This document shows, piece after piece, positions 1 through 61,261 of a stretch of DNA of 64,000 bases. The DNA lies in assembly GCF_049337375.1 (NCBI RefSeq), contig NZ_JBMPIV010000015.1, one strand, 5' to 3'. Made by a program: the position numbers and the translations under genes. The stretch's first letter is position 1; every line of letters starts with the position of its first letter. The notes beneath the pieces were generated by a model. That model was not told where the DNA came from, ran no database searches, and worked only from the letters and a program-made list of their open reading frames with translations. This DNA is from Nannocystis pusilla. GTDB taxonomy: Bacteria > Myxococcota_A > Polyangia > Nannocystales > Nannocystaceae.

Positions 1-422
1 AGGGCCAGGCGCGCACGCTCGAGCGCCTGCTGCGGCGCGCGCAGGTGCGGCCCGACGAGGTCGACTTCGTCTGCGCTCACGCGACCAGCACGCCGCTCGG
101 CGACCTGTCCGAGCTCAACGCGATCCGCAAGGTCTTCGGCGACCACGCGAAGAAGCTCAAGATCAACGCGCCGAAGTCGATGCTCGGCCACACCTGCTGG
201 TCGGCGCCGGCGGTCGAGACCGTGGCCGCGATGCTGCAGATGCGCGGCGGTGTGCTCCACCCGTCGATCAACATCGACGAGCTCGACCCCGAGGTCGACG
301 TCGACGTGTGCGCCAACAAGGCGGTCGAACACCGCATCAACCTGATGGTCAAGAACTCGTTCGGCTTCGGCGGCCTCAATTGCTGCGCGCTGTACCGCCG
401 GTGGGACCCGAACAGCCTGTGA
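1..422 (+). CDS. beta-ketoacyl synthase (KS), C-terminal fragment, 5'-partial
   Basis: The translation ends ...NSFGFGGLNCCALYRRW, typical of the FabF/KS C-terminal fold. The ORF runs off the window start. It is followed by a KR, HMGS, two ECH and an ACP. Confidence 0.75.
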   Translation, partial: GQARTLERLLRRAQVRPDEVDFVCAHATSTPLGDLSELNAIRKVFGDHAKKLKINAPKSMLGHTCWSAPAVETVAAMLQMRGGVLHPSINIDELDPEVDVDVCANKAVEHRINLMVKNSFGFGGLNCCALYRRWDPNSL

Positions 423-430
423 GCCGCGCC

Positions 431-1174
431 ATGAACTTCTTCGTCACCGGAGGCTCGCGGGGCATCGGCGCCGGCATCGTGCTCGAGGCGGTGCGCGCCG
501 GCCACGACGTCGCGTTCGCGTACCGCAGCAACGACGACGCGGCGCGCAAGATCGAGGCCGAGGCGGCGGCGATCCGCCCGGGCGCGAAGGTCAAGGGCTA
601 CGCGCTCGACGTGAGCCGCTCGGACCGCGTCGGCGAGGTCGCGGACGCGGTGCTCGAGGACTTCGACAGCGTCGAGGTGATCGTCAACTGCGCCGGCATC
701 AACCGCGCCAACCTCGTGGTCTCGATGTCCGACGAGGAGTGGCACGACGTGCTAGCGACCAACCTGCACGGCCCGTTCTACGTCGTGCGCGCGTTCCTGC
801 CGGCGATGCTGGCGGCGCGGTTCGGGCGGATCGTCAACATCTCGTCGATCCAGCACAACGGCGCGGCCGGCCAGGCCAACTACGCCGCCAGCAAGGCCGG
901 CCTGCACGGCTTCACCCAGGCGCTCGCCAAGGAGTACGGGCGCAAGGGCATCACCGCCAACGTCGTCGTGCCGGGCTTCTTCGACACCGACATGACGCGC
1001 GAGACCATGCCGCAGGCGGCCAAGGACTACTGGCAGCAGTACTGCCCGATGCCGAAGGGGCGCATGGGCACGCTGGCCGAGCTGGCGGCGACGGTCCTGT
1101 TTTTGGCCACGGGCGGCAGCTTCATCAACGGTCAGGTCGTGCCGGTCACGGGCGGCCTCGACTGGACATACTGA
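431..1174 (+). CDS. fabG: 3-oxoacyl-ACP reductase (SDR, FabG-like ketoreductase)
   Basis: TGGSRGIG Rossmann motif, NAG, and the S...YAASKAG catalytic motif (YxxxK). ATG at 431 lies 8 nt after the KS stop. Confidence 0.85.
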   Translation: MNFFVTGGSRGIGAGIVLEAVRAGHDVAFAYRSNDDAARKIEAEAAAIRPGAKVKGYALDVSRSDRVGEVADAVLEDFDSVEVIVNCAGINRANLVVSMSDEEWHDVLATNLHGPFYVVRAFLPAMLAARFGRIVNISSIQHNGAAGQANYAASKAGLHGFTQALAKEYGRKGITANVVVPGFFDTDMTRETMPQAAKDYWQQYCPMPKGRMGTLAELAATVLFLATGGSFINGQVVPVTGGLDWTY

Positions 1175-1188
1175 GAGGGAGGACGGCG

Positions 1189-2430
1189 ATGGCGCACCAC
1201 CGGCCGCGCGTGGGCATCGAGCGGATCACGGCGTACCCGTGCACGCTCTCGCTCGACATGAAGCTGCTCGCGGAGGCGCGCGATCACGATCCGCGCCACC
1301 CGCTCGAGGAGCTGTGGGTCAGCGAGCGCTCGCTCAACCCGACGTGGGAGGATCCGGTGACGATGGCGGTCAACGCCGCGCTGCAGATCGTCCGGCCCGA
1401 GGACCGCAAGGACATCGAGCTCGTGATCGTCGGCACCGAGTCGTCGGTCGACTTCGGCAAGCCGATCTCGACCTACGTGCAGCGCTACTGCGGGCTCACG
1501 GCCAACTGCCGCAACTTCGAGACCAAGCACGCCTGCTACGGCGGCACCGGCGGTCTGATGATGGCGGCCCACTGGGTCGCGTCGGGGGCGGCGCCGGGCA
1601 AGAAGGCGCTGGTGGTCTGCACCGATCAGAGCCGCGTGCACCTCGGCCAGCCGTGGGAGTACGTGCTCGGCGCGGCCGCGACGGCGATGCTGGTCAGCGC
1701 CCAGCCCGACGTCCTCGAGCTCGACCTCGACACCTGCGGCTACTGGACGCAGGAGATCTTCGACACCTACCGCCCGACCTCGACGAAGGAGGTGGGCCAC
1801 GCCGACACCAGCCTGTACGGCTACCTCGACGCGCTCGAGGGCGCCTACGACCACTTCGTCGCCCGCTCGGGCATGGTCGACTACGACGCCGAGTTCGCGC
1901 GCCACATCTACCACGTGCCGTTCGGCGGCATGACCTTCCGCGCCCACCGGGCGCTGCTCCGCCGCGGCCCGCACGAGATGTCGCTGCGCGAGGCCAGGGC
2001 CCACTTCGAGCGCAAGTCGAAGCAGGCGCTGCGCTACAACTCGCGCTTCGGCGGCACCTACACCTCGGCGACCTTCATCGCCATGCTCGGCCTCATCGAC
2101 GCCGACCCCGAGCTGCGCGCCGGCGACAAGGTCTCGATCTTCTCCTACGGCTCGGGCTCGTGCGCCGAGTTCTACCGCGCGACCGTGGGCGAGCGCGCGC
2201 GCGAGCAGGTCGCCAGCCAGCGCGTCGGCGCCGGCCTCGATCGCCGCATGCCGCTGACCATCGAGGAGTACGAGGCGCTCGAGCGCCAGCGCGCCGCCTT
2301 CATCGACCAGAGCGACTACGAGGTCGACCAGTCGGGCCTGCGCGGGCTCTACGAGCGCGCGTACGCCGGCAAGGGTCGCCTCGTGCTCGACGCCGTGCGC
2401 GGCTTCCAGCGGGAGTACCGCCTGTCCTGA
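1189..2430 (+). CDS. HMG-CoA synthase-like beta-branching enzyme (PksG/TaC/MupH family)
   Basis: HMGS fold motifs: ...GTESSVDFGKP..., Cys in CRNFETKHACYGGT, and HVPFGGM. Start re-derived at ATG 1189 (MAHHRPRVGIERITAY) rather than the ORF-track 739. Confidence 0.88.
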   Translation: MAHHRPRVGIERITAYPCTLSLDMKLLAEARDHDPRHPLEELWVSERSLNPTWEDPVTMAVNAALQIVRPEDRKDIELVIVGTESSVDFGKPISTYVQRYCGLTANCRNFETKHACYGGTGGLMMAAHWVASGAAPGKKALVVCTDQSRVHLGQPWEYVLGAAATAMLVSAQPDVLELDLDTCGYWTQEIFDTYRPTSTKEVGHADTSLYGYLDALEGAYDHFVARSGMVDYDAEFARHIYHVPFGGMTFRAHRALLRRGPHEMSLREARAHFERKSKQALRYNSRFGGTYTSATFIAMLGLIDADPELRAGDKVSIFSYGSGSCAEFYRATVGERAREQVASQRVGAGLDRRMPLTIEEYEALERQRAAFIDQSDYEVDQSGLRGLYERAYAGKGRLVLDAVRGFQREYRLS

Positions 2431-2538
2431 GGCTCCGACCATGCCGCGCCTGTCCTTCGCCACGCCGGCCGCGCCGCCCCTCGGCGTCGTGCGGCCCGGC
2501 CGCTCGTTTCATCGTCTCAGCATTTCGGAGGTGATCGC

Positions 2539-3294
2539 GTGCGCGTCCGCTGCGAAGAGGGCGAGCTAGTTCATCGGCTGTTCCTCGGGACAGGTCCCGG
2601 AGAACATGTCGCATTGGACACCGACGGGATCGCCGCGCTGGCCGAGGCGGTCGAGCAGGCGGTCGCCGGTCCGGCGCGCGCGCTGGTGATCGCCAGCGAG
2701 GGCCCCGAGTTCTGCGCCGGCATGGACCTCGCGGCGGCGCTGCGGACCCCGTCGGCGCAGATGCGCGAGGCCATGCAGCGCTTCGCCGGCTGTCTCGAGC
2801 TGCTGGCGAGCGCGAAGCTGGCGACGATCGCGGTGGTCACGGGCGCGGCCAGCGGCGGCGGGGTCGGCCTGGCGGCCGCGTGCGACCTGGTGGTGGCGGC
2901 GTCGGCGGCCACGTTCGCGCTGCCGGAGCTGCGCTACGGGCTGGTGCCGGCGGTGATCTTCCCGGCGCTCGAGGCCCGGATCGGCGCGCGGCGGACCCGG
3001 CGGCTGGCGCTGACCGGCGAGCTGGTGACCGCGGCCCAGGCCGAGCCGTGGGGCCTCGTCGACGTGGTCGCGGACGACCCGGACAAGGCGCTGCGCGGCC
3101 TCTTGCGCTCGCTGCTGCGCGCGCGCCCGCAGGCGGTGGCGACGCTCAAGCGGATCACCGGGCCGTCGGGGCAGGGCGGGGTGGCCCAGACCGCGGCCGA
3201 CCTCGAGGACCCCGAGCTGCGGGCGGCGCTGGCGGCCCTGCTGGCCGAGGGGCAGGCGCCGCCGTGGTTCGCCAGGCTGAAAGGACAGGAATGA
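2539..3294 (+). CDS. enoyl-CoA hydratase-like ECH1 (PksH/TaX-type dehydratase of the HMGS cassette)
   Basis: Crotonase fold: CAGMDL, ...VVTGAASGGGVGLAAACDLVVA. GGAGG lies 7 nt upstream of GTG 2539. Confidence 0.8.
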   Translation: MRVRCEEGELVHRLFLGTGPGEHVALDTDGIAALAEAVEQAVAGPARALVIASEGPEFCAGMDLAAALRTPSAQMREAMQRFAGCLELLASAKLATIAVVTGAASGGGVGLAAACDLVVAASAATFALPELRYGLVPAVIFPALEARIGARRTRRLALTGELVTAAQAEPWGLVDVVADDPDKALRGLLRSLLRARPQAVATLKRITGPSGQGGVAQTAADLEDPELRAALAALLAEGQAPPWFARLKGQE

Positions 3295-4067
3295 ACGCGC
3301 ATGTCCAAACAGACAGCCTCGTCGAGGTGACGCTCGAGCGCGACGGCGTGGCCGTGCTGACCATGCGCGACGCCGCCGGCAAGAACGCGTTCGGCCGGGC
3401 GTTCGTCGCCGTGCTGACGCGCGCGCTCGAGGACCTCGGCCGGCGCGCCGACGTCCGCGTGGTCGTGATCGCCGGCCTGCCCGAGGTGTTCTCCGCCGGC
3501 GGCGACCGCGACGTCCTGCTCGGCCTCGCCGACGGCACGATCGCCCCGTACGACCTGCTGCTGACGCGGGCGCTGCTCGAGGTGCCGGTGCCGACGATCG
3601 CCGCGATGGCGGGGCCCGCGGTCGGCGGCGGCCTGGTGTTCGGCCTCGCCTGCGACATGGTCGTGATGGCCCGCGAGAGCCGCTACGGCGCCAATTTCAT
3701 GGACCTCGGCTTCACGCCGGGGATGGGCGCGACGCGCCTCGTGCAGTTCGCGTTCGGCGAGTACGTCGGGGCCGAGATGCTGTACGGCTCGCAGTACTTC
3801 CGCGGCGAGCAGCTGGCGGGGCGCGGCCAGGTCAACGCGGTCGTGCCGCGCGCCGAGGTGCTGCCGCGGGCGCTCGACCTGGCGGCGCGGATCGCCGACA
3901 AGCCGCGGGCTGCGCTGCTGTTGCTCAAACGTGCGCTGGCGTTGCCGCGGCGACGGGCCTTCGAGGAGGCGCGCACGGTCGAGTCGATGATGCACGAGGT
4001 ATGCTTCGCCGACCCGGAGACGGTGGCGCGGATCCGCACGAACTACGGGCCAGGCCAGGGAGGATGA
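3291..4067 (+). CDS. enoyl-CoA hydratase-like ECH2 (PksI/TaY-type decarboxylase of the HMGS cassette)
   Basis: Crotonase fold (AGKNAFG..., AMAGPAVGGGLVFGLACD). ATGA start/stop overlap with ECH1. Confidence 0.8.
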   Translation: MNAHVQTDSLVEVTLERDGVAVLTMRDAAGKNAFGRAFVAVLTRALEDLGRRADVRVVVIAGLPEVFSAGGDRDVLLGLADGTIAPYDLLLTRALLEVPVPTIAAMAGPAVGGGLVFGLACDMVVMARESRYGANFMDLGFTPGMGATRLVQFAFGEYVGAEMLYGSQYFRGEQLAGRGQVNAVVPRAEVLPRALDLAARIADKPRAALLLLKRALALPRRRAFEEARTVESMMHEVCFADPETVARIRTNYGPGQGG

Positions 4068-4070
4068 CGC

Positions 4071-4886
4071 TTGCTCAATGACTTCAAGGACAGGGTCGTC
4101 TTGATCACGGGCGGGACGCGCGGCATCGGCCTCGCGTGCGCGCTCGCGTTCGGGCGCCAGGGCGCGCGCACGGTGCTGACGCACCGCTGGGGCTCGGCCG
4201 ACGAGGACGCGCTGAAGGCCCGCTTTATCGCCGCCGGGGCCCCGGCGCCGCTGGTGATCGAGGCCGACGCGTCGCGCGAGGAGGACACCGACAAGCTGAC
4301 CGCGCGGCTCAAGGAGGAGTGCGACGGCGTGTGGGCGTTCATCAGCAACGTCTGCGTGGTCCAGCGCGGCGAAGGGCCGGAGAAGCACACCCGGCGCGCG
4401 CTGTACAAGAGCCTCGAGTACTCGAGCTGGCCGTTCGTCGGCTACCTGCAGGCGCTGCACGCCGCGTTCGGTCGCTACCCCCGCTACGCGCTGGCGATGT
4501 CGTCCGACGGGCCCGACACGCACTACCCCGGCTACGACTACGTGGCGGTGGCCAAGGCGGTGCTGGAGACGTTCGTGCGCTACATGAGCACGCACCTCTA
4601 CGAGCACGGCTGCATCGTCAACGCCCTGCGCACCCGCCAGGTGATGACCGAGAGCTACGAGCAGATGTTCGCCGCCCAGCAGCGCGAGCTGGCGAGCAAG
4701 TTCCCCGAGTTCGCGTGCACGGTCGACGAGGTCGCCGACACGACCCTCGCGCTGTGCAGCGGGCTGTTCGACGCGATGGGCGGGCAAGTGCTGACGCTCG
4801 ACCGCGGCGCGGCGTTCGTCGACAACGTCGCCACGCTCGGGCCGCGGCTCGTCGGCGGCAGCGACAAGGAAGGAGCTCCGGCGTGA
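4071..4886 (+). CDS. FabI/FabL-family (SDR) enoyl-ACP reductase, copy 1
   Basis: TGGTRGIGLA Gly motif. Tyr-x6-Lys (YDYVAVAK) followed by VRYMS, as in FabI (YNVMGLAK...VRYMA). Rare TTG start with GGAGGA 6 nt upstream. Confidence 0.65.
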   Translation: MLNDFKDRVVLITGGTRGIGLACALAFGRQGARTVLTHRWGSADEDALKARFIAAGAPAPLVIEADASREEDTDKLTARLKEECDGVWAFISNVCVVQRGEGPEKHTRRALYKSLEYSSWPFVGYLQALHAAFGRYPRYALAMSSDGPDTHYPGYDYVAVAKAVLETFVRYMSTHLYEHGCIVNALRTRQVMTESYEQMFAAQQRELASKFPEFACTVDEVADTTLALCSGLFDAMGGQVLTLDRGAAFVDNVATLGPRLVGGSDKEGAPA

Positions 4887-5698
4887 TCCTCCGCAACGAC
4901 CTCAAGGGCAAGGCCGTCATCGTCACCGGCGGGACGGCGGGCATCGGCCTGGCGACCGGCCTGCTGTTCGGCAAGTACGGCGCGCACGTGTACCTGACGC
5001 ACCGCTGGGGCTCGGCCGACGAGGACGAGCTGCGGGCCCGCTTCGACGCCGCGGGCGCGCCGGCGCCGACGATCGTCGAGGCCGACGCGTCGCAGGACGA
5101 GGACACCGAGGCGCTGATGGAGGCGGTCAAGCGCGACCACGACGCCGTGTTCGCGCTGATCAGCAACGTGTCGTTCGCCCACGTCAGCAAGTCGCACGAG
5201 GACCTCGACAAGAAGAGCTTCCTGCGCAGCCTCGGCTACAGCGCGTGGCCGTTCGTCGGCTACCTGCAGGCCATCCGCGAGACCTTCGGCCGCTGGCCCC
5301 GTTACGCGGTGGGAATGTCGTCGCGCGGGCCCGAGTACTTCCTCCCGGGCTACGACTTCGTGGCCGCGAGCAAGACCGTGATGGAGACCTTCTGTCGCTA
5401 CCTCACGGCAGATCTGCTCAGTGAGGATGTTCGCATCAACATCCTGCGCGCGAACCCGGTCGAGACTGCATCGCTGGAGGCCACGTTCGGGCCCGACTTC
5501 GTGCCGTTCTGCAAGAAGTACTACTCGGAAGGCTGGTTCATCGACCCCGACGAGGTCGCGGCCGCGGCGCTGGCCCTCTGCAGCGGCCTCATGGACGGCG
5601 TCAAGGGGCAGATTCTGCTACTGGACAGGGGCCTCGGTTTCGCCGACAACGTCGTTCGCCTGTTTTCGGCGCGCGAGCGCCACGGGCTGAGTTTTTGA
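4883..5698 (+). CDS. FabI/FabL-family (SDR) enoyl-ACP reductase, copy 2 (tandem paralog)
   Basis: Paralog of the previous CDS (TGGTAGIGLA; HRWGSADEDE; YDFVAASK). GTGA start/stop overlap. AAGGAAGGAG RBS. Confidence 0.65.
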   Translation: MILRNDLKGKAVIVTGGTAGIGLATGLLFGKYGAHVYLTHRWGSADEDELRARFDAAGAPAPTIVEADASQDEDTEALMEAVKRDHDAVFALISNVSFAHVSKSHEDLDKKSFLRSLGYSAWPFVGYLQAIRETFGRWPRYAVGMSSRGPEYFLPGYDFVAASKTVMETFCRYLTADLLSEDVRINILRANPVETASLEATFGPDFVPFCKKYYSEGWFIDPDEVAAAALALCSGLMDGVKGQILLLDRGLGFADNVVRLFSARERHGLSF

Positions 5699-5761
5699 CC
5701 TTCGCTTCCTGCGAGATTCGCTGCGGGCAACCTGCACCGCGCCCACCAAGGAGAACCGAGA

Positions 5762-6028
5762 ATGAGCACCCGCGATGATGTCTTGGCCGTCGTCAAGCGC
5801 CACCTCGTGGACACCGTCGAAGGGATCGATGCGGCCCAGGTCGACCCCGCCAAGTCGATGAAGGACCTCGGGGCCAACAGCCTCGACATCGTCGAGGTCG
5901 TCTCCTGCAGCATGCGCGAGCTCAAGGTGAAGATCCCCCGCGCCGAGCTCAACAAGCTGACGAACATCAACGAGCTCGTCGACCTGCTGCACAAGACGGT
6001 GCAAGAGAAGCAGGCCGCCGCGTCCTGA
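5762..6028 (+). CDS. acyl carrier protein (free-standing ACP, likely donor ACP of the HMGS cassette)
   Basis: 88 aa with LGANSLDIVEVV (DSL phosphopantetheine-attachment Ser). Confidence 0.85.
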   Translation: MSTRDDVLAVVKRHLVDTVEGIDAAQVDPAKSMKDLGANSLDIVEVVSCSMRELKVKIPRAELNKLTNINELVDLLHKTVQEKQAAAS

Positions 6029-6179
6029 GCGCCGCCGGCGTGTGTCCCCGCGGACAGGGTCCCGGGGACATGACCGATCGGCCAGACACGTTCGCGCCCG
6101 CGCTGCGCTCGCCGCAGCCCGGGCGCGCTCGTCGTACCGGGACCTCGCGCGCGGGAACTCGCGCCTCTTGGCGCGCGAA

Positions 6180-6600
6180 CCGAGCGAAGCGCGTGGGCTT
6201 CGCCTGGCTTTGGGTTCAATGTGGCCAAGGTCGGACGGCAACCAGCGCTGCGGCAAGGCGATCCCCGGCCTTCCAGGCCGATGCGGGTTCGATCGCTGCG
6301 GCTGGCAGGCCAGCTTCGGCGCACCGTCAGACCTGGCCTTCAAGGCCGATGCGGGCTCGATCGCAGGCCGGCGCTTTGGCGCGCCGTCACGCCTGGCCTT
6401 AGGGTCATGGCGAAATCAGGGCGGGGCAGCGCCGCGGCGAGATGATGCACCTGGCCTTCGGGCCAGGTGCGCGGCTCAGGTAAGCCCGTGCTTCACGGCG
6501 CGGTCTCCTCTGGTTCGCAGCTCCCGAGGCGTCTGTCCTTTGAGCCAGGTACGTGACGCATGCGGGCCTCGGCGTGGCTTGCGGCTCAGGCGGGCGGCAG
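6180..6600. repeat. cluster of >=5 imperfect ~60-70-bp direct repeats, each containing a GGCCTTCnAGGCC / CTGGCCTTCGGGCCAG-type hairpin
   Basis: Seen directly: cctggccttcaaggccgatgcggg..., ccggccttccaggccgatgcggg..., cctggccttagggtcatggcg, ctggccttcgggccaggtgcgcggctcagg. The region is non-coding, between the ACP stop and a convergent gene. Confidence 0.6.
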
Positions 6601-7389
6601 GCGGCGGACCAGCGCGTCGGCGCGACGCCAGGCCGACACGACCAGGAGCGCCCACACGTTGAGCCCGACCGCGACCGCGAGGGCGGCTGTCCAGAAGGAC
6701 AGATCGAGCCGGACCGCCGCGGCGGCGGTGGCGACGTAGAGCAGCGCGAGGTGGGTGTCGTGGCTCAGCGGCGCCGCCATGCGCAGGGGAGGGGCCAGCA
6801 GCGAGCGGGCCGCGCCGGGAGCGGGACGGGGGCCGGTGTGCTCCGGCCCGAGCAGCGCGGCCGCGATGTCATGGAACACAGCGGGGCCGAGCCCGCGGGA
6901 CAGCGCGGCGACCGAGGGCCGCGGCGAGGGCGGCGCTGCGTCGCTGCCTCCGCCGGTCAGGTCGCGGAACCGGCGACGCAGCTCGGCGTGCAGCCCGACG
7001 TGGATCAGCGCGCTGACCAGCGCCACCGACGCGAGGGTGCAGGCCCACGGGTTGGCCGGCGCGGCTCGCAGCGTCAGCGCGACCCAGAAGGCGGCGCCGA
7101 TCGCAAACTCGAGCGTGCCGGCCTCGGCCTCCGCGGCGCCGGCGAGGAGGCGGCGACACCGGCTGGCGACGGTGAACGCGAACAACAGCCAGGCGGGGAA
7201 GATCCAGTCGACGCCGCTCGGCGCGGCCAGCAGCACGGCGACGGCGCCGGTGAGGCCGACCACGAGTCCGGCGAGGGTGAGCAGCTCGACGCTCGGCGCC
7301 GGTCGCACCCGCTCGAGGACCCACGCTGCGAGCGGCCGATGGAGGTGGCGATCGAGAGTTCCCTCGGTGATCGGATCGTCGTCGGCCAT
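6586..7389 (-). CDS. hypothetical polytopic membrane protein
   Basis: 267 aa with several hydrophobic helices. No recognised catalytic motif. Confidence 0.45.
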   Translation of the reverse strand: MADDDPITEGTLDRHLHRPLAAWVLERVRPAPSVELLTLAGLVVGLTGAVAVLLAAPSGVDWIFPAWLLFAFTVASRCRRLLAGAAEAEAGTLEFAIGAAFWVALTLRAAPANPWACTLASVALVSALIHVGLHAELRRRFRDLTGGGSDAAPPSPRPSVAALSRGLGPAVFHDIAAALLGPEHTGPRPAPGAARSLLAPPLRMAAPLSHDTHLALLYVATAAAAVRLDLSFWTAALAVAVGLNVWALLVVSAWRRADALVRRLPPA

Positions 7390-8285: not shown

Positions 8286-8338
8286 GGGGCTGTCCGATCG
8301 GCCAGGTTTATTCGGGCAGGGGCTCGGGAGCAGGTGCC

Positions 8339-8380
8339 CAGGGACATGCCCGCAAGGACATGTCCCTCAGGACAGTCGGC
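8339..8380. repeat. GGACATGTCC-family palindromic repeat array
   Basis: cagggacatgcccgcaaggacatgtccctcaggacag. Confidence 0.7.
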
Positions 8381-9695: not shown

Positions 9696-11636
9696 TCACC
9701 GCAGCAGGGCGTAGGCCGACGTCACCAGCAAATTGGCGATCGCCAGGGGCACCGCGGCCCGCTCGAGAAAGAAGAGAGCAGCGCGCGCACGCGAGCCGGT
9801 GGCCGACGCGTGCAGCCGCTGCACGAACCATACGACCGCAGCGATCTTCGCCGCCGCCACGACTGCGCCGATGAACAGCACGAGGCCGTGGCCGCTGCCG
9901 GCGAGCGCCGCCGCGGGCAAACCACCGCCAAGGAAACAGGCGACGAACGCCGCCGCGAAGGCGAGTCGTTCGAGCCGTCCTGCCGGCGGCGCGGCCGCGA
10001 CCGCGAGGGCCACTGCAGCGGCGATCGGTTGCACGAAGATTCCCCAAGAGGGAGGGATCGCAGCACCGCCGACGAGCCCCGCTGCTTGCTCCCCCACGAG
10101 CCGCCGTGGATCGAGGGTCCCAAAGGCCAGCAACGGACCGGCGAATGCGGCGGCGAGGGCGAGGTCGCGCGACGCGAGGCGGCGGGCCAGCGCAGCCCGG
10201 TCGACGAGGCGACCGAGGCCGGCGGACACGAGGGCGACGAGATAGACGAGCCAGCCTTCACCGACGGCGATCAGCGACAGCGAAGCACCGCCCCGACCCG
10301 CGGCGCACTGCTCGACGTCCGCCGCCGAGAGGCTGCTGCCGACGCCGTCGAAGCATAGGCCGGGACCGAACGGGAACAGCGCCAGGGCGGCGAGCACCGG
10401 CAGCCAGGTGGTCCAGTTCAGCCGGGTGCGACGCGTCGAAATCCACGCCAGCGCGACGAGCGCGAGCGCCAGGGCGGTGCGGATCGCCGTGCGCCGCAGA
10501 TCGCTCGCGAGGTCGGGCGGCTCCCAGCGGAGCTCGACGATCTGGGGCGCCTCTCCCGCCGCAAAAAGGAGGCGCGCGCTACCGGAGCGAGAGGCGCCGG
10601 CGCGATCGAAGTGGTCGCGGTCGACGCGGAGGCGCAGGCTCACGGCTCCGCCGGCAGCGATCTCCCGCGGGTACTCGCGGTTCTCGATCGAGAAGGCGCC
10701 CCAGTCCGGGGTGCGGGTGTCGAAGCGGATCCGGGTCAACGGCACGGGCGCCGCGCCGTGATTCACGAGCCGCAGCTCGAGACGCTCCGCCGCCGGCGTG
10801 AACACGAGGGTCCCCGGTTCGGGGCGCACGCCCGTCGGCGGCGCGCCGCAGCCGAGCGCGAGGGCGAAGAAGAGGACGCAGGGCGCGGCGGGCGAGGTCG
10901 CGGCGCGGAGGAAGTTGCGACGCGGGAGCGGCGAGCTCGCGTGCGCGACGCGGGCGAGCGGGAGCGGCGAGGCGACCGAAGTGGACAGTCGCAGCGATAC
11001 GGCCGCGAGCGAGGAGCTCGCGCTTGCCGCCAAGCTGCGAAGAAGTGGATGCGGAGACGCTACCGCGAGCGAGGAGCTCGCCAGCGTCTCGTCGACCCCG
11101 CGCATGGCCGAAGCGGACGAAGGCGGCGACGCGACCTCGGGCCGGGTGCTCGCGCTTGCATCAAAGCTGCGAGAAAGCGGGAGCGTCGAGGTGACCTGGG
11201 GCGAGGAACTGACGCGCGTGTCGTCGATCGAAGCGGACGGTCGCAACGAAGCGACCTCGGGCGAGGTGCTCGCGCTTGCCTCGAAGCTGCGGCGAAGTGG
11301 AAGCGGCGACGCGGCCTCGGGCGGGGAGCTCGCTGGCGTCTCGTCGACGACATGCATGACCGAAGCGGACGGTCGCAGCGACGCGACCTCGAGCCGGACG
11401 CTCGCCTCTTCGAGCTGGAAGCTCGCAGGTTCCTCGTCGACGCCAGGCATGGCCGACGCGAGCTCGGGCGAGGAGCTCGCACGAAGCGGCGACTCGAGCT
11501 CGCGCGACACGACGTCCGGCGCCACGCCGTCGCAGGCCCTTGCGGCCAGGTCACTCGCCGACGAGTCCACGCGCAGCGCGACGTCGCGGCTCGCCGACGC
11601 GGGCGCAGGCGAGGCGGCGGCGCGCGGGCGGATCAT
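9696..11636 (-). CDS. large membrane protein: disordered Ser/Ala/Pro-rich repeat N-terminus, one TM, Ig-like middle region, polytopic C-terminus
   Basis: Start placed at ATG 11636 (ATGA overlap with the upstream small-ORF stop) rather than 11750. Four to five ~42-aa repeats (ASLRPSAS..VDETPASS..). Confidence 0.55.
   Translation of the reverse strand: MIRPRAAASPAPASASRDVALRVDSSASDLAARACDGVAPDVVSRELESPLRASSSPELASAMPGVDEEPASFQLEEASVRLEVASLRPSASVMHVVDETPASSPPEAASPLPLRRSFEASASTSPEVASLRPSASIDDTRVSSSPQVTSTLPLSRSFDASASTRPEVASPPSSASAMRGVDETLASSSLAVASPHPLLRSLAASASSSLAAVSLRLSTSVASPLPLARVAHASSPLPRRNFLRAATSPAAPCVLFFALALGCGAPPTGVRPEPGTLVFTPAAERLELRLVNHGAAPVPLTRIRFDTRTPDWGAFSIENREYPREIAAGGAVSLRLRVDRDHFDRAGASRSGSARLLFAAGEAPQIVELRWEPPDLASDLRRTAIRTALALALVALAWISTRRTRLNWTTWLPVLAALALFPFGPGLCFDGVGSSLSAADVEQCAAGRGGASLSLIAVGEGWLVYLVALVSAGLGRLVDRAALARRLASRDLALAAAFAGPLLAFGTLDPRRLVGEQAAGLVGGAAIPPSWGIFVQPIAAAVALAVAAAPPAGRLERLAFAAAFVACFLGGGLPAAALAGSGHGLVLFIGAVVAAAKIAAVVWFVQRLHASATGSRARAALFFLERAAVPLAIANLLVTSAYALLR
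10800..11600. repeat. intragenic tandem DNA repeats (~126 bp x 4-5) encoding the S/A/P-rich repeats
   Basis: Periodic sequence on both strands (e.g. ...gaagcggacggtcgcaacgaagcgacctcgggcgaggtgctcgcgcttgcctcgaagctgcg... recurs). Confidence 0.6.
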
Positions 11637-11980
11637 GGCGCGCGGGTCAGCGAGGGCCACGCGATCGCGGTCGCCAGACCCAGCAGGCCGAGGCCGGCGG
11701 CGCTGACCCAGAGGGCAGGTCCTTCCGGACATGTCGTGCTGGACAGGCACACCGCGGCGGTCGGCGCGAACAGGACCAGGGCCAGCGCGAGCGCGAAGCC
11801 GAGGCCGGCGAGCGCGAGGAGGCCGCCGGTGTCGACGGGCTGGCGCGGGCGCAGCTGCACCAAACTCTCGCCGGTGTCGGTCGCGGCTTGCTGCCTCGCC
11901 CGGGCGCGGACCAGGCCGGCGAGGACCCCGATGAGCCCGACGGCTGCGACGAGCGGCAGGTAGTCGAGCAGGGGGCCCAT
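11633..11980 (-). CDS. small membrane protein (115 aa, 3 TM)
   Basis: ATG directly abuts the macro-domain gene stop (TAA-ATG). Its stop overlaps the downstream start (ATGA). Confidence 0.55.
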   Translation of the reverse strand: MGPLLDYLPLVAAVGLIGVLAGLVRARARQQAATDTGESLVQLRPRQPVDTGGLLALAGLGFALALALVLFAPTAAVCLSSTTCPEGPALWVSAAGLGLLGLATAIAWPSLTRAP

Positions 11981-14175: not shown

Positions 14176-14190
14176 AAAGGCCAGGTCGGC

Positions 14191-20369: not shown

Positions 20370-20898
20370 GGCGGGCGCGGAGCATACCAGGGTCGCGCCC
20401 GCAGTGAACCCGTTCGCGAGGCGAGATCCGTGACGTCGACCTCGCACGCACGCCGCGCCTCCGAAGCCGCGGCTCCAGGGACCTCGAAGGGCGGCGCTCG
20501 ACGTACGCGACGGTGCGTCCCGTTCGCGCTTGCTCGGTGGCGATCCCGGGAGGACAGGCGATGTCCCGCTGCGCGCCGACCGGCGAGGGCCACGGCCGAC
20601 GCGAACTGTCAGAGCGGAGGAGGCTTCGAGCGCCGCAGGATCCGACGGAGTAGGCGCAGTCAGGTGAGGCGCGCGTGGGCCTCGGGGAGCCTTGAACTCG
20701 CCGCGAGCGTCTTGGGGTGGGCGAGGATCAGCGTCGGCCGGTGGCGAGCACGTTGGCGATCGCGGGGTAGCCCGATGCGGGGTGCTCGCCCGCAGTTGGG
20801 CCTGCTGTGCTCACCATGATGGTGGGTCCCCTGCTTTCGAATTCGACGCAGAGCCAGGCGCCGTGGGCAGAGACGTCGTGCTTTCCTGTGACGAGCCC

Positions 20899-21837: not shown

Positions 21838-22719
21838 TCAGGGGCTCGCCGGGGTGTGAGAGGGATGCCGGAGGGCCACGCGCAGCAGCGTCTTCAGGCG
21901 CGCGTTGCCGACCCGCTTGCCGATCGCGGCCGGACCCGCGGGCCGCTCCCACTGCGGGGGCGGTCGCCCGGCGAGGGCGGCGAGGCGAGCGAAGATCTCG
22001 CGCCGCGGGGTGTGGTCGTCGTCGACGACGTTGATGACGCCGCGCTCGTCCGGCGCGAGGGTCAAGGCGGCGAGGACGGCCTGCACTGCGTCCTCGCAGT
22101 GGATGAGGTTGGTCGGCTGCATGCCGTCGCCCGCAAGGACTGCGTCGTCACCGGCGCCGCGGTAGAGGCGGAACAGCTCGCGACCCGGACCGTAGAGGCC
22201 GCCGAGGCGGAGGATCGTCCATGGCACTGCGTGGCGCGTGCAGGTGTCTCGCACCAGCTCCTCGGCCTCGCGCTGCACGCGACCTCGCGGCTCGTCGGGC
22301 CACTCGAGGCAGTCGTCGTCGAGCCACGCGTCGCGGTCGGGCAGGGCCGAGGTGGACGAGGTGTAGACGAGGCGGGTGAGCGGGAGGGTGACCGCGGCGG
22401 CGAGCAGGCGCCGGGTGCCCTCGACGTAGAGCTCGCGGCGGTCCTGCTGCTTGCCCGGGGCGTAGCAGACGACCAGCGACTGCGCGCCGGCGAGGACCGC
22501 GGCGATGTCGGCCGGGGCGAGCGCGGCGACGTCGAGCGGGCGGAGCTCGATGCCTTCCGGGACATGTCCTTGCGGCCATGTCCCGGAGCGCGTGGTCGCA
22601 AGGACAGGCGGATCGCCGACGCCGCCGGTCGCCGCGAGCGCGGCGGCCACGGGGGCGCCGAGGAAGCCGGCGCCGACGACGGCGACCGGGCGAGCGAGAG
22701 GGGACCCGCCGCTGGGCAC
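21838..22719 (-). CDS. NAD-dependent epimerase/dehydratase family protein
   Basis: N-terminal VAVVGAGFLGAPVAAAL Rossmann fold. Putative GTG start 11 nt after the upstream stop. Confidence 0.6.
   Translation of the reverse strand: MPSGGSPLARPVAVVGAGFLGAPVAAALAATGGVGDPPVLATTRSGTWPQGHVPEGIELRPLDVAALAPADIAAVLAGAQSLVVCYAPGKQQDRRELYVEGTRRLLAAAVTLPLTRLVYTSSTSALPDRDAWLDDDCLEWPDEPRGRVQREAEELVRDTCTRHAVPWTILRLGGLYGPGRELFRLYRGAGDDAVLAGDGMQPTNLIHCEDAVQAVLAALTLAPDERGVINVVDDDHTPRREIFARLAALAGRPPPQWERPAGPAAIGKRVGNARLKTLLRVALRHPSHTPASP
22550..22600. repeat. GGACATGTCC-family palindromic repeat array
   Basis: ccgggacatgtccttgcggccatgtcccggag...aaggacagg. Confidence 0.7.
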
Positions 22720-24377: not shown

Positions 24378-24432
24378 GGGACATGTCTGTCGCGACATGT
24401 CCGCCGCGACATGTCCTTCAGGACTCGCGGAA
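24372..24432. repeat. GGACATGTCC-family palindromic repeat array (3 units)
   Basis: gagggacatgtctgtcgcgacatgtccgccgcgacatgtccttcaggac. Confidence 0.75.
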
Positions 24433-40235: not shown

Positions 40236-40368
40236 GATGACTTCGGGGGCATGTCCGTTCGGGCATGCCCCTTCACACATGTCCGAACCGCTCGAGGCGC
40301 GGTGCCTGGAATTCAGCGCATGCCTTTTCGGGCATGTCTGAGCGGCCATGTCCTTGGGGTCATGGCCC
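40236..40368. repeat. GGACATGTCC-family palindromic repeat array (two 3-unit arrays)
   Basis: ggcatgtccgttcgggcatgccccttcacacatgtccgaacc...gcatgccttttcgggcatgtctgagcggccatgtccttggggtcatggcc. Confidence 0.75.
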
Positions 40369-40941
40369 GCCGGACAGGGTCACGTACAGCACCGGGACGG
40401 CGATGCCGAGCAGCACGAACACGCCGCCGCGGCCGACCAGGCCCTTGCGGCCGGGCAGCATGAACAGGCCCGAGGCGGCGAGGAACAGCAGGAACACGGC
40501 GTAGCCGTCGGCGATGTAGGTCCAGGCCTTCTTGCCGCGGTTCAGGTGCAGCCAGTTGGCGACCCGCAGCAAGAGGCGCGGGCGCTGGCCGTCCTCGAGG
40601 ACGACGCCGCTGTCGAGGTCGACGTGGAGGGTGCTGCCGTCGAGGAGGATCGACAGCTCCCGCGCGTCGCTGCGGTAGACCTCGGTCGGCGGGCGGGGGA
40701 GGGCGAGCTCGGCGAGGACCTTGTCGGCGGCGGCGCGGTCGTCCTCGGGCAGCGGCACGGCGACCTGGTGGCGCGCCTCGTAGTTGTCGAAGTTCGGGTC
40801 CCAGTCGGCGATGTGATTGACCGCGAGGCCCGACAGCGCGTAGACGAAGGTGAGGCCGACGGCGACGTAGCCGATGTCGCGGTGGAGGGCGCGCAGCCAC
40901 GGCCGCCAGCGGACCGGGCGCCGGCGCTCGGGCTCAGGCAT
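40360..40941 (-). CDS. PepSY-associated TM-helix membrane protein
   Basis: WLRALHRDIGYVAVGLTFV motif. Overlaps the upstream Mo-enzyme gene. Confidence 0.55.
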   Translation of the reverse strand: MPEPERRRPVRWRPWLRALHRDIGYVAVGLTFVYALSGLAVNHIADWDPNFDNYEARHQVAVPLPEDDRAAADKVLAELALPRPPTEVYRSDARELSILLDGSTLHVDLDSGVVLEDGQRPRLLLRVANWLHLNRGKKAWTYIADGYAVFLLFLAASGLFMLPGRKGLVGRGGVFVLLGIAVPVLYVTLSGGP

Positions 40942-54249: not shown

Positions 54250-54480
54250 ACGAGCGCCGCGCCGGCGCTCGCTGGGCGGGGGCCATGAGCTGTCGCCCTC
54301 ACTGCCCTCGAGGACATGTTTAAGAGGACATGCTCGGTGGAGCATGCCCTCTTAGAAATGTCGGAAACCGCGCCGGCGCTCGCTGGGCGGGGGCTATGAG
54401 CTGTCGCTCTCACTGCCCTCGAGGACATGTTTAAGAGGACATGCTCGATGGTGCATGTCCTTTAAAAAATGTTTGAACGG
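54250..54480. repeat. ~110-bp tandem direct duplication (2 copies, ~93% identical), each carrying GGACATG-type palindrome units
   Basis: ccgcgccggcgctcgctgggcgggggc[c/t]atgagctgtcgc[c/t]ctcactgccctcgaggacatgtttaagaggacatgctcg[g/a]tgg[a/t]gcatg[c/t]cc... Confidence 0.85.
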
Positions 54481-61114: not shown

Positions 61115-61261
61115 GCGACTGTCCCGCGGGACATGGCCTGCGGGACAGGCGCGATCTGTTCGCCGCGCCTGCCAGCTCGGCCACGCGACCGGCGCGTCCA
61201 GGTCGGTCGCAAGCCCGACCGCTCCGTCGTGAGCAGGAGCGCGGAGGGGCTCCGAGAGCGC

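Follow-up and report, generated by a model that had tools for sequence, protein, structure and literature searches.

What fills the long spacer behind the last gene of a myxobacterial operon, and is the series of hairpins in it a functional element or a by-product of genome change? This question is raised by positions 6029-6585 of a 64,000-nt stretch of Nannocystis pusilla DNA (contig NZ_JBMPIV010000015.1; G+C content 72%), which was analysed as a whole and is called the window here. The 557-nt spacer separates the gene for an acyl carrier protein (ACP; 5762-6028, + strand), which encodes a PP-binding domain (Pfam) and closes its operon, from a convergent gene on the - strand (6586-7389) encoding a hydrophobic protein of 267 amino acids (267-aa protein) without a Pfam domain. 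An earlier note on this DNA had described at least five imperfect repeats of about 60-70 bp in the spacer and had offered a multi-hairpin terminator or insulator, a dispersed palindromic element, an uncharacterised structured RNA and a cluster boundary element as possible explanations. Our analysis makes it probable that the spacer holds a locus-specific, minisatellite-like array that arose by tandem duplication of gene-end relics together with terminator-type palindromes, an array that is itself dispensable and whose intact hairpins serve at most as 3'-end hairpins. The array is best seen as an oddity of genome evolution and not as a novel means of regulation.

That the region is non-coding and lies between two convergent gene ends, as the earlier note had stated, was confirmed. 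In a GC-frame plot strong codon-position periodicity, with position-specific GC values of up to 0.9-1.0 in both flanking genes, extends to 6028 and resumes at ~6586, and the plot is flat in between, indicating that 6029-6585 does not code for protein. A coding reading of the spacer was ruled out by this flat plot together with the lengths of the repeat units, which are not multiples of three.

We delimited the repeat units by reading the spacer alongside the orthologous spacers of other strains (loci used for comparison carry numbers of the form L001). Six units of 54-82 nt, all on the + strand, fill positions 6201-6585 head to tail and fall within the 10-100 nt unit length of minisatellites, or variable number tandem repeats (VNTRs). 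A unit starts with a version of the hairpin CCTGGCC-TTCG-GGCCAGG, which is followed by GTGCGG and then by ..CAGCGCTGCGGCGA... Unit A (6201-6263), the hairpin of which has decayed, has its nearest relatives from other strains in the A units of L001 and L003. Units B1 (6264-6331) and B2 (6332-6391) contain the palindromes GGCCTTCCAGGCC (6267-6279) and GGCCTTCAAGGCC (6336-6348), respectively, and, being 91% identical over 33 nt, appear to be recent duplicates of one another. Unit C (6392-6449) has the imperfect hairpin CCTGGCCTTAGGGTCATGG and shares 73-77% identity with the units of type C in L001 and L003. Unit T (6450-6531) combines the palindrome CTGGCCTTCGGGCCAG (6451-6466) with a relic stop-codon context, GCGGCTCAGG (6471-6480), and its hairpin GCACCTGGCC-TTCG-GGCCAGGTGC (6447-6470), a perfect 10-bp stem with a TTCG loop and a folding energy of -23.1 kcal/mol, is the sole intact hairpin among the array units. 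The terminal unit T2 (6532-6585), with the decayed hairpin CTGTCCTTTGAGCCAGG, is 73% identical to L005_T and is the counterpart of the perfect terminal hairpin unit in strain L005. Hairpins have decayed in four of the six units, A, C and T2 among them.

Tandem Repeats Finder did not detect the array, as its units are too degenerate, and reported only a 14-nt repeat of 1.9 copies in the region. We also used a unit profile built from other strains only. This independent profile recognised units C and T significantly (E-values of 2.8e-5 and 5e-5) and units B2, A and T2 weakly (0.13, 0.22 and 2), yet the latter three are among its top matches in the window and lie in phase on one strand; B1 was not recognised by the profile itself but only via B2. 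The three palindromes quoted in the earlier note are all present, and its at least five imperfect repeats correspond to the six units. Its description of each repeat as carrying a perfect or near-perfect palindrome was too generous, as only the T hairpin is intact, three units are weak matches and a standard repeat finder is blind to the array.

The convergent pair of the ACP and 267-aa genes is conserved across the Nannocystaceae, with spacers that differ widely in length and content. In distant relatives the spacer has 52-60 nt and contains one ATGTCC-N4-GGACAT or CCTGTCC-N4-GGACAGG hairpin, in N. radixulma and a related metagenome contig it has 199-207 nt without an array, and in N. punicea (275 nt) and N. 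bainbridge (323 nt) it contains one hairpin unit. Arrays with differing unit complements are found in pusilla- and exedens-like strains, whose spacers measure 351, 443, 467, 557 (the window) and 661 nt, i.e. the copy number is polymorphic between strains at the same locus, as is typical for a VNTR. From 6136 to ~6570-6585 the strains are only 47-58% identical to each other, as compared to 95-100% in the coding flanks and 83-100% in other nearby spacers. The array is not an assembly artefact, as it was reproduced in independent assemblies: the arrays of L002 and L004 are equal, and those of L005 and L007 nearly so.

Across strains the units group by type (A, B, C and T) at 61-84% identity. L003 (JBMEQO010000002.1) contains an A-B-C higher-order repeat of 184 nt in 2.5 copies. 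In the same sequence the SDR gene (2124-3004) and the 267-aa gene (3929-4746) are each split into two calls, suggesting indel errors or real frameshifts, so that its array sequence should be taken with some caution. In N. exedens DSM 71 (L002) a conserved terminator module is repeated 151 nt downstream with 82% identity (3356-3540), and at the other end of the spacer a terminal hairpin unit of 38 nt occurs twice, its duplication extending over the stop codon of the 267-aa gene (3641-3716); both ends thus carry independent duplications. Judged from these comparisons, the spacer is a hot spot of tandem duplication and rapid change, and the array is young and lineage-restricted.

The source of the unit is indicated by the end of the neighbouring gene. 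An alignment of the unit profile with the 3'-terminal ~50 nt of the 267-aa gene (6577-6627, including the stop codon) scores 10.2 bits, and the other gene 3' ends in a control set of 60 gene ends from the window reach no more than 1.6 bits. With the independent profile the same gene end is the third-best match in the whole window. When the gene end was aligned with the arrays of L001 and L003 by the Smith-Waterman algorithm, 0 of 300 dinucleotide shuffles reached the observed score. The stop-context 10-mer GCGGCTCAGG is repeated exactly in unit T, 110 nt upstream of the genuine stop context. The C-terminus of the 267-aa protein, ..AWRRAEALVRRLPPA, is conserved in relatives without an array, indicating that copying went from the gene end to the units. 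The scenario that the earlier note had set against its own readings, in which a duplicated coding segment leaves a degenerate relic, is thus directly supported by the match between the unit profile and the 3' end of the 267-aa gene. Outside this locus, full units were absent from the rest of the 64-kb window, from ~70 kb covering other Nannocystis loci and from the metagenome matches, and a metagenome scan with the hairpin plus GTGCGGAC returned 16 matches, mostly in unrelated coding DNA and none with a full unit.

Stop codons of minus-strand genes account for part of another claim, namely that a gcgcggctcagg motif follows the palindromes and recurs at 14180, 18905 and 20650. With up to one mismatch the 12-mer GCGCGGCTCAGG occurs in the window at chance level (6 observed versus 4.0 expected). 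Its 8-mer core GGCTCAGG is found nine times versus 2.8 expected, and six of these copies (6583, 14188, 18911, 19830, 40931 and 42378) read as the complement of CC-TGA-GCC, the sequence around the stop codons of minus-strand genes, the real stop of the 267-aa gene at 6586-6588 being among them. Two of the supposed recurrences are such stop-context copies (14188 and 18911) and nothing is present at 20650, so that gcgcggctcagg was discarded as a repeat family.

From the observed anatomy, the variability in copy number and sequence, the gene-end homology and the restriction of full units to this locus within the DNA searched, we infer how the duplication may have proceeded and whether the hairpins might take part in termination. 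The ancestral spacer would have contained a single stop-proximal palindrome of the TGTCC-N4-GGACA type. Within the genus a long hairpin at 6093-6135, taken as the terminator of the ACP operon, would have been gained and conserved. Later, in one Nannocystis clade, a segment of ~60-70 nt, which started within the 3' end of the 267-aa gene, spanned the stop codon and extended to a downstream CCTG(T/G)CC-TTCG-GG(A/C)CAGG hairpin, would have been duplicated head to tail, the likely trigger being slippage or illegitimate recombination between this hairpin and its look-alike within the gene, CCAGGCC..GACCAGG. Unequal recombination might then have produced the unit types A, B and C, the ~184-nt higher-order repeat of some strains, and gains and losses particular to single lineages. 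The additional copies would be non-coding relics, the intact hairpins probably form 3' ends of one or both converging transcripts, acting in termination or as exonuclease barriers, and the array itself is most likely a dispensable, nearly neutral by-product.

Several observations weigh against this course of events. Where the flanks of two strains are 1-5% divergent, their units of one type diverge by 16-39%, and this discrepancy implies that simple duplication and loss are insufficient without additional mutation or gene conversion; the excess divergence might stem from gene conversion between units or from template switching driven by hairpins, both plausible candidates. The match to the gene end covers a short stretch of about 25-50 nt (~80% identity) in very GC-rich sequence, and the Smith-Waterman alignment of the gene end with the decayed array of the window itself is not significant (46 of 300 shuffles). 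The DNA searched for full units, 64 kb plus ~70 kb of other loci and the metagenome matches, amounts to less than a whole Nannocystis genome. Finally, in L001, L003 and L005 the hairpin and the GTGCG following it are the best-kept part of the unit, which, together with the greater stability of the hairpins of most units as + strand RNA, hints at some selection on the hairpins.

The last point would be expected if the array were a selected, bidirectional multi-hairpin terminator or insulator, kept to stop transcription of the ACP operon and of the 267-aa gene from colliding or to protect the 3' ends of both mRNAs. The convergent position fits this idea, and so does RNA folding of both strands, a check proposed in the earlier note, in which the whole spacer was more stable than its shuffles on either strand (z of -3.0 and -3.9). 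In most units the hairpin is more stable as + strand RNA, TTCG (UUCG in RNA) is the commonest loop, and stems contain 32 G.T as compared to 15 A.C pairs, a weak test as the units are non-independent and some are mis-registered; the strand preference and the UUCG loops are weakly consistent with a role as transcript-end hairpins. Palindromes of the same type are also located 6-28 nt past other stop codons. The array does not, however, contain canonical intrinsic (Rho-independent) terminators, in which a stem-loop is directly followed by a T/U-tract: no array hairpin is followed by a T-tract, and a terminator scan gave one weak site (6194-6206) versus 0.6 expected. Moreover, most hairpins in the window have decayed, sister species have zero units or one, distant relatives manage the same gene boundary with one hairpin, and unit number and sequence vary freely between near-identical strains. 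Of the terminator or insulator proposed in the earlier note, position and hairpins remain, and we consider it unlikely that the array as a whole is maintained for this purpose.

Intrinsic terminators without a U-tract ("I-shaped" terminators) have been described for high-GC bacteria such as mycobacteria. The stable GC-rich stem-loops that lie a few nt past stop codons in Nannocystis, without a T-run, resemble them. In contrast to I-shaped terminators, the Nannocystis stems share TGTCC/GGACA across many genes and form chains or arrays, and termination by them is putative.

A cluster boundary element, suggested in the earlier note from the position of the spacer at the border of a biosynthetic cluster, was rejected. 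We found no divergence step across the gene boundary between species, and in distant relatives the same boundary is a spacer of 52-60 nt.

The part of the spacer next to the ACP gene behaves differently from the array. The first ~107 nt past the ACP stop codon are 87-97% identical between strains and comprise two abutting palindromes of the TGTCC/GGACA type and a 43-nt hairpin block. The first palindrome, TGTCC-CCGC-GGACA (6043-6056, no strand assigned), belongs to the TGTCC-N4-GGACA family, starts 15 nt past the ACP stop and is ancestral at its position, the 52-60-nt spacer of distant relatives holding just one such hairpin. The second, GGTCC-CGG-GGACA (6058-6070, likewise without strand), was read from the sequence; across species its stems are kept and its loop varies. 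The hairpin block (6093-6135, + strand) is a long GC-rich inverted repeat, CGCGCCCGCGCTGCGC-TCGC-CGCAGCCCGGGCGCGC, followed by TCGTCGT, and in an alignment of 10 Nannocystis sequences almost all of its columns are the same in all 10. It is the putative terminator or 3'-end hairpin of the ACP operon. Because the module is invariant, no compensatory changes can be observed among these 10 sequences and the hairpin gives no covariation signal. Between the block and the array lies a variable GC-rich stretch (6136-6200, no strand) that cannot be aligned between strains and contains a 14-nt tandem repeat of 1.9 copies (6138-6164) and short hairpins.

The conserved segment and the preference for stable hairpins with C(UUCG)G loops on the + strand could also point to small structured RNAs arranged as an array, or to a cis-acting RNA structure of another kind, in the 3' untranslated region (UTR) of the ACP operon, e.g. 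3'UTR-derived small RNAs each ending in a UUCG hairpin. Rfam 15, scanned with the window region and with the cleanest array (L003) at E-values up to 1 and 5, yielded only the chance-level matches sR-tMet (E = 0.27, outside the region) and mir-3926 (E = 3.9), and a promoter scan revealed no promoter-like sites in the region. Near-identical strains differ greatly in the repeat part, sister species lack it, and the conserved module, being invariant, adds no compensatory changes in favour of a structured RNA. The uncharacterised structured RNA of the earlier note thus found no support, and we regard such an array as very unlikely. This concerns the repeats; the genus-invariant hairpin at 6093-6135 may be the end of a conserved 3'UTR-derived small RNA.

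A further explanation starts from the hairpin core. Repetitive extragenic palindromes (REPs) and the bacterial interspersed mosaic elements (BIMEs) formed by them in Escherichia coli and other Enterobacteria are clusters of extragenic palindromes between convergent genes or in operons, which stabilise upstream mRNA and bind gyrase and IHF, and REPs are mobilised by RAYT transposases. By analogy, the units might be copies of a dispersed palindrome family whose spread and rearrangement would depend on a dedicated transposase or on recombination among genomic copies. Like BIMEs, the array is a strain-variable cluster of GC-rich imperfect palindromes in a 3' spacer, and the T hairpin and its imperfect versions in the other units correspond to the imperfect stem-loops of roughly 20-40 nt that characterise REPs.

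A dispersed palindrome does exist in this lineage. TGTCC-N4-GGACA occurs 10 times in the window (6043, 6688, 8361, 34664, 34707, 45589, 53591, 55068, 59508 and 61120) versus ~0.1 expected, i.e. it is about 100-fold over-represented, and no other 5-N4-5 palindrome in the window is enriched beyond about 4-fold. Unrelated Nannocystis loci contain ~8 copies per 64 kb, and 220 kb from other taxa contain none. Of the 10 window copies, five are in DNA called as intergenic, at 6-15 nt (four copies) or 50 nt (one copy) past a stop codon, and a sixth is located 28 nt past a stop, within a doubtful N-terminal extension of the next called gene. The remaining four are inside genes, in different reading frames and without a common peptide; the copy at 6688 encodes a conserved LSFWT motif. 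The flanks of the palindrome are C..G or A..T, giving CTGTCC..GGACAG or ATGTCC..GGACAT. Chains of two or three abutting 14-nt palindromes stand right after stop codons at 8340-8374, 22557-22590, 24380-24416, 40333-40376 and 61120-61147. In the chain at 8340-8374 the loops vary between species, and a two-sided change in N. bainbridge, TGTTC..GAACA, preserves the stem. The array hairpin TGGCC-TTCG-GGCCA is one compensated pair away from this family, and the single unit of N. bainbridge carries an exact family member, CCTGTCCTTCGGGACAGG.

What is dispersed, as far as the sequences suggest, is the hairpin core, which is REP-like in its distribution, and not the ~60-nt unit. The dispersed core has only 14-16 nt, and the full unit was found at one locus only within the DNA searched. 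A scan of a genome collection with the exact 19-mer hairpin gave 37 matches, ~10 of them in Nannocystis with 1-2 per genome, some in coding sequence and some just past stop codons, which ruled out the 19-mer as a high-copy exact repeat. All units, in the window as well as in other strains, are in direct and not in alternating orientation, no GTAG or GT(A/G)G head stands beside the stems, and no transposase is located nearby, neither a transposase in general nor a RAYT being present among the 13 ORFs around the locus that were scanned with Pfam. Furthermore, the part of the unit outside the hairpin matches the 3' end of the neighbouring gene. BLASTN of the spacer against plasmids and phages gave no match; with the results of the Rfam, promoter and terminator scans and of the divergence comparison, this leaves the array without any sign of a specific function. 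In the literature collection searched, nothing relevant on Nannocystis or Myxococcus repeats and REPs was found. The resemblance to a REP/BIME-like element that the earlier note had seen therefore holds for the core and fails for the unit, and a REP/BIME cluster is an improbable explanation of the array.

Hairpins combined with local tandem repeats are not confined to this spacer. Other Nannocystis spacers (L035 3700-3870, from a metagenome-assembled genome, L012 7300-7700 and L042 3500-4140) pair a CCTGGCCTTCGGGCCAGG hairpin with local tandem repeats, and in one of them, where two genes converge, there are three units of 32 nt that each contain a GACCC-GGA-GGGTC hairpin. Such arrays may recur as a genus feature. 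A related palindrome, TGTCC-GATC-GGCCA (8291-8304; TGGCCGATCGGACA on the coding strand), is located a few nt ahead of the GTG start codon for the cobalamin adenosyltransferase and is invariant in nearly all relatives that possess it, including distant ones; it may be a translational or regulatory hairpin.

In Neisseria and Haemophilus, inverted pairs of DNA uptake sequences act as terminators. The Nannocystis palindrome shares with them that a specific, over-represented short sequence forms inverted-repeat hairpins behind genes and is also found inside coding regions. It differs in that its half-site has only 5-6 nt, the spacing is fixed at N4 and there is no sign of competence-linked uptake.

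A ~23-nt hairpin "repeat" with a period of ~60 nt and variability between strains might finally suggest a degenerate CRISPR array or the repeat RNA of a type III toxin-antitoxin system (ToxI-like). Unit alignment and gene content refute both, leaving next to no probability for either. In contrast to a CRISPR array, the "repeats" have degenerated and the "spacers" show homology to each other across units and strains. The neighbouring genes encode ECH, SDR and ACP proteins, the 267-aa protein and the cobalamin adenosyltransferase, with neither cas genes nor a toxin gene downstream on the same strand; the gene following the array is convergent and on the opposite strand, in contrast to a ToxI arrangement.

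The closest known counterparts of the tandem-duplication array are the MIRU-VNTR minisatellites of Mycobacterium (mycobacterial interspersed repetitive units), intergenic tandem repeats of 40-100 bp with strain-specific copy number that form a family at about 40 loci. The Nannocystis array agrees with them in its head-to-tail units of 54-82 nt, its intergenic position in a high-GC genome and its polymorphism in copy number and sequence between close strains. It differs in that the unit was seen at one locus, carries a hairpin and apparently derives from the 3' end of a gene.

The ACP protein is 100% identical in several Nannocystis genomes, on chromosomes of 11-12.7 Mb (N. exedens DSM 71 NETK01000001.1, CP185339.1 and JBMEQO010000002.1), and the 267-aa gene has orthologues in other Nannocystis, its product being 96% identical to an N. 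pusilla protein. According to its Pfam domains the + strand operon ending with the ACP gene has the order KS, KR, HMG-CoA-synthase-like, ECH, ECH, SDR, SDR and ACP. It occupies window positions 1-6028, where only the C-terminus of the KS is included, and corresponds to a cassette of the HMG-CoA-synthase "beta-branching" type. The compared part of the operon, from ECH through ACP, is 92-99% identical at the nucleotide level even across Nannocystis species and is better conserved than the genes beyond the spacer. Two further tandem repeats were noticed in the window. One, with periods of 60 and 120 nt (3.5 and 1.8 copies; 11109-11333), lies within a long minus-strand ORF (9696-11750) and is probably a repeated protein segment. 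The other is an intergenic 111-nt repeat of 1.9 copies (54257-54472) with 92% identity, GAGGACATG motifs and an unusually AT-rich TCTAAAAAATGTC stretch.

As an intergenic minisatellite that varies between strains, the array is a possible typing marker for Nannocystis strains, and it provides a clear example of how a long, "mysterious" spacer can be born from serial duplication of a gene tail and a terminator hairpin. The wider point of the analysis is that a little-studied, biotechnologically relevant myxobacterial genus seems to employ a single specific palindrome behind many of its genes. It is conceivable, albeit doubtful, that Nannocystis and its relatives carry an undescribed, lineage-specific REP-like system in which (C/A)TGTCC-N4-GGACA(G/T) marks gene 3' ends, singly or in abutting chains, with its stem kept by compensatory change and local copies destabilising the DNA around them so that hypervariable tandem arrays are seeded; the destabilising agent may then be a dedicated palindrome-recognising protein or hairpin-driven template switching. 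If the palindrome were a true system, be it a code for termination, a site bound by a protein or an element of the REP kind, it would matter for the annotation of gene ends, for operon prediction and for the heterologous expression of biosynthetic clusters, and it would offer a tractable case of locally accelerated sequence evolution.

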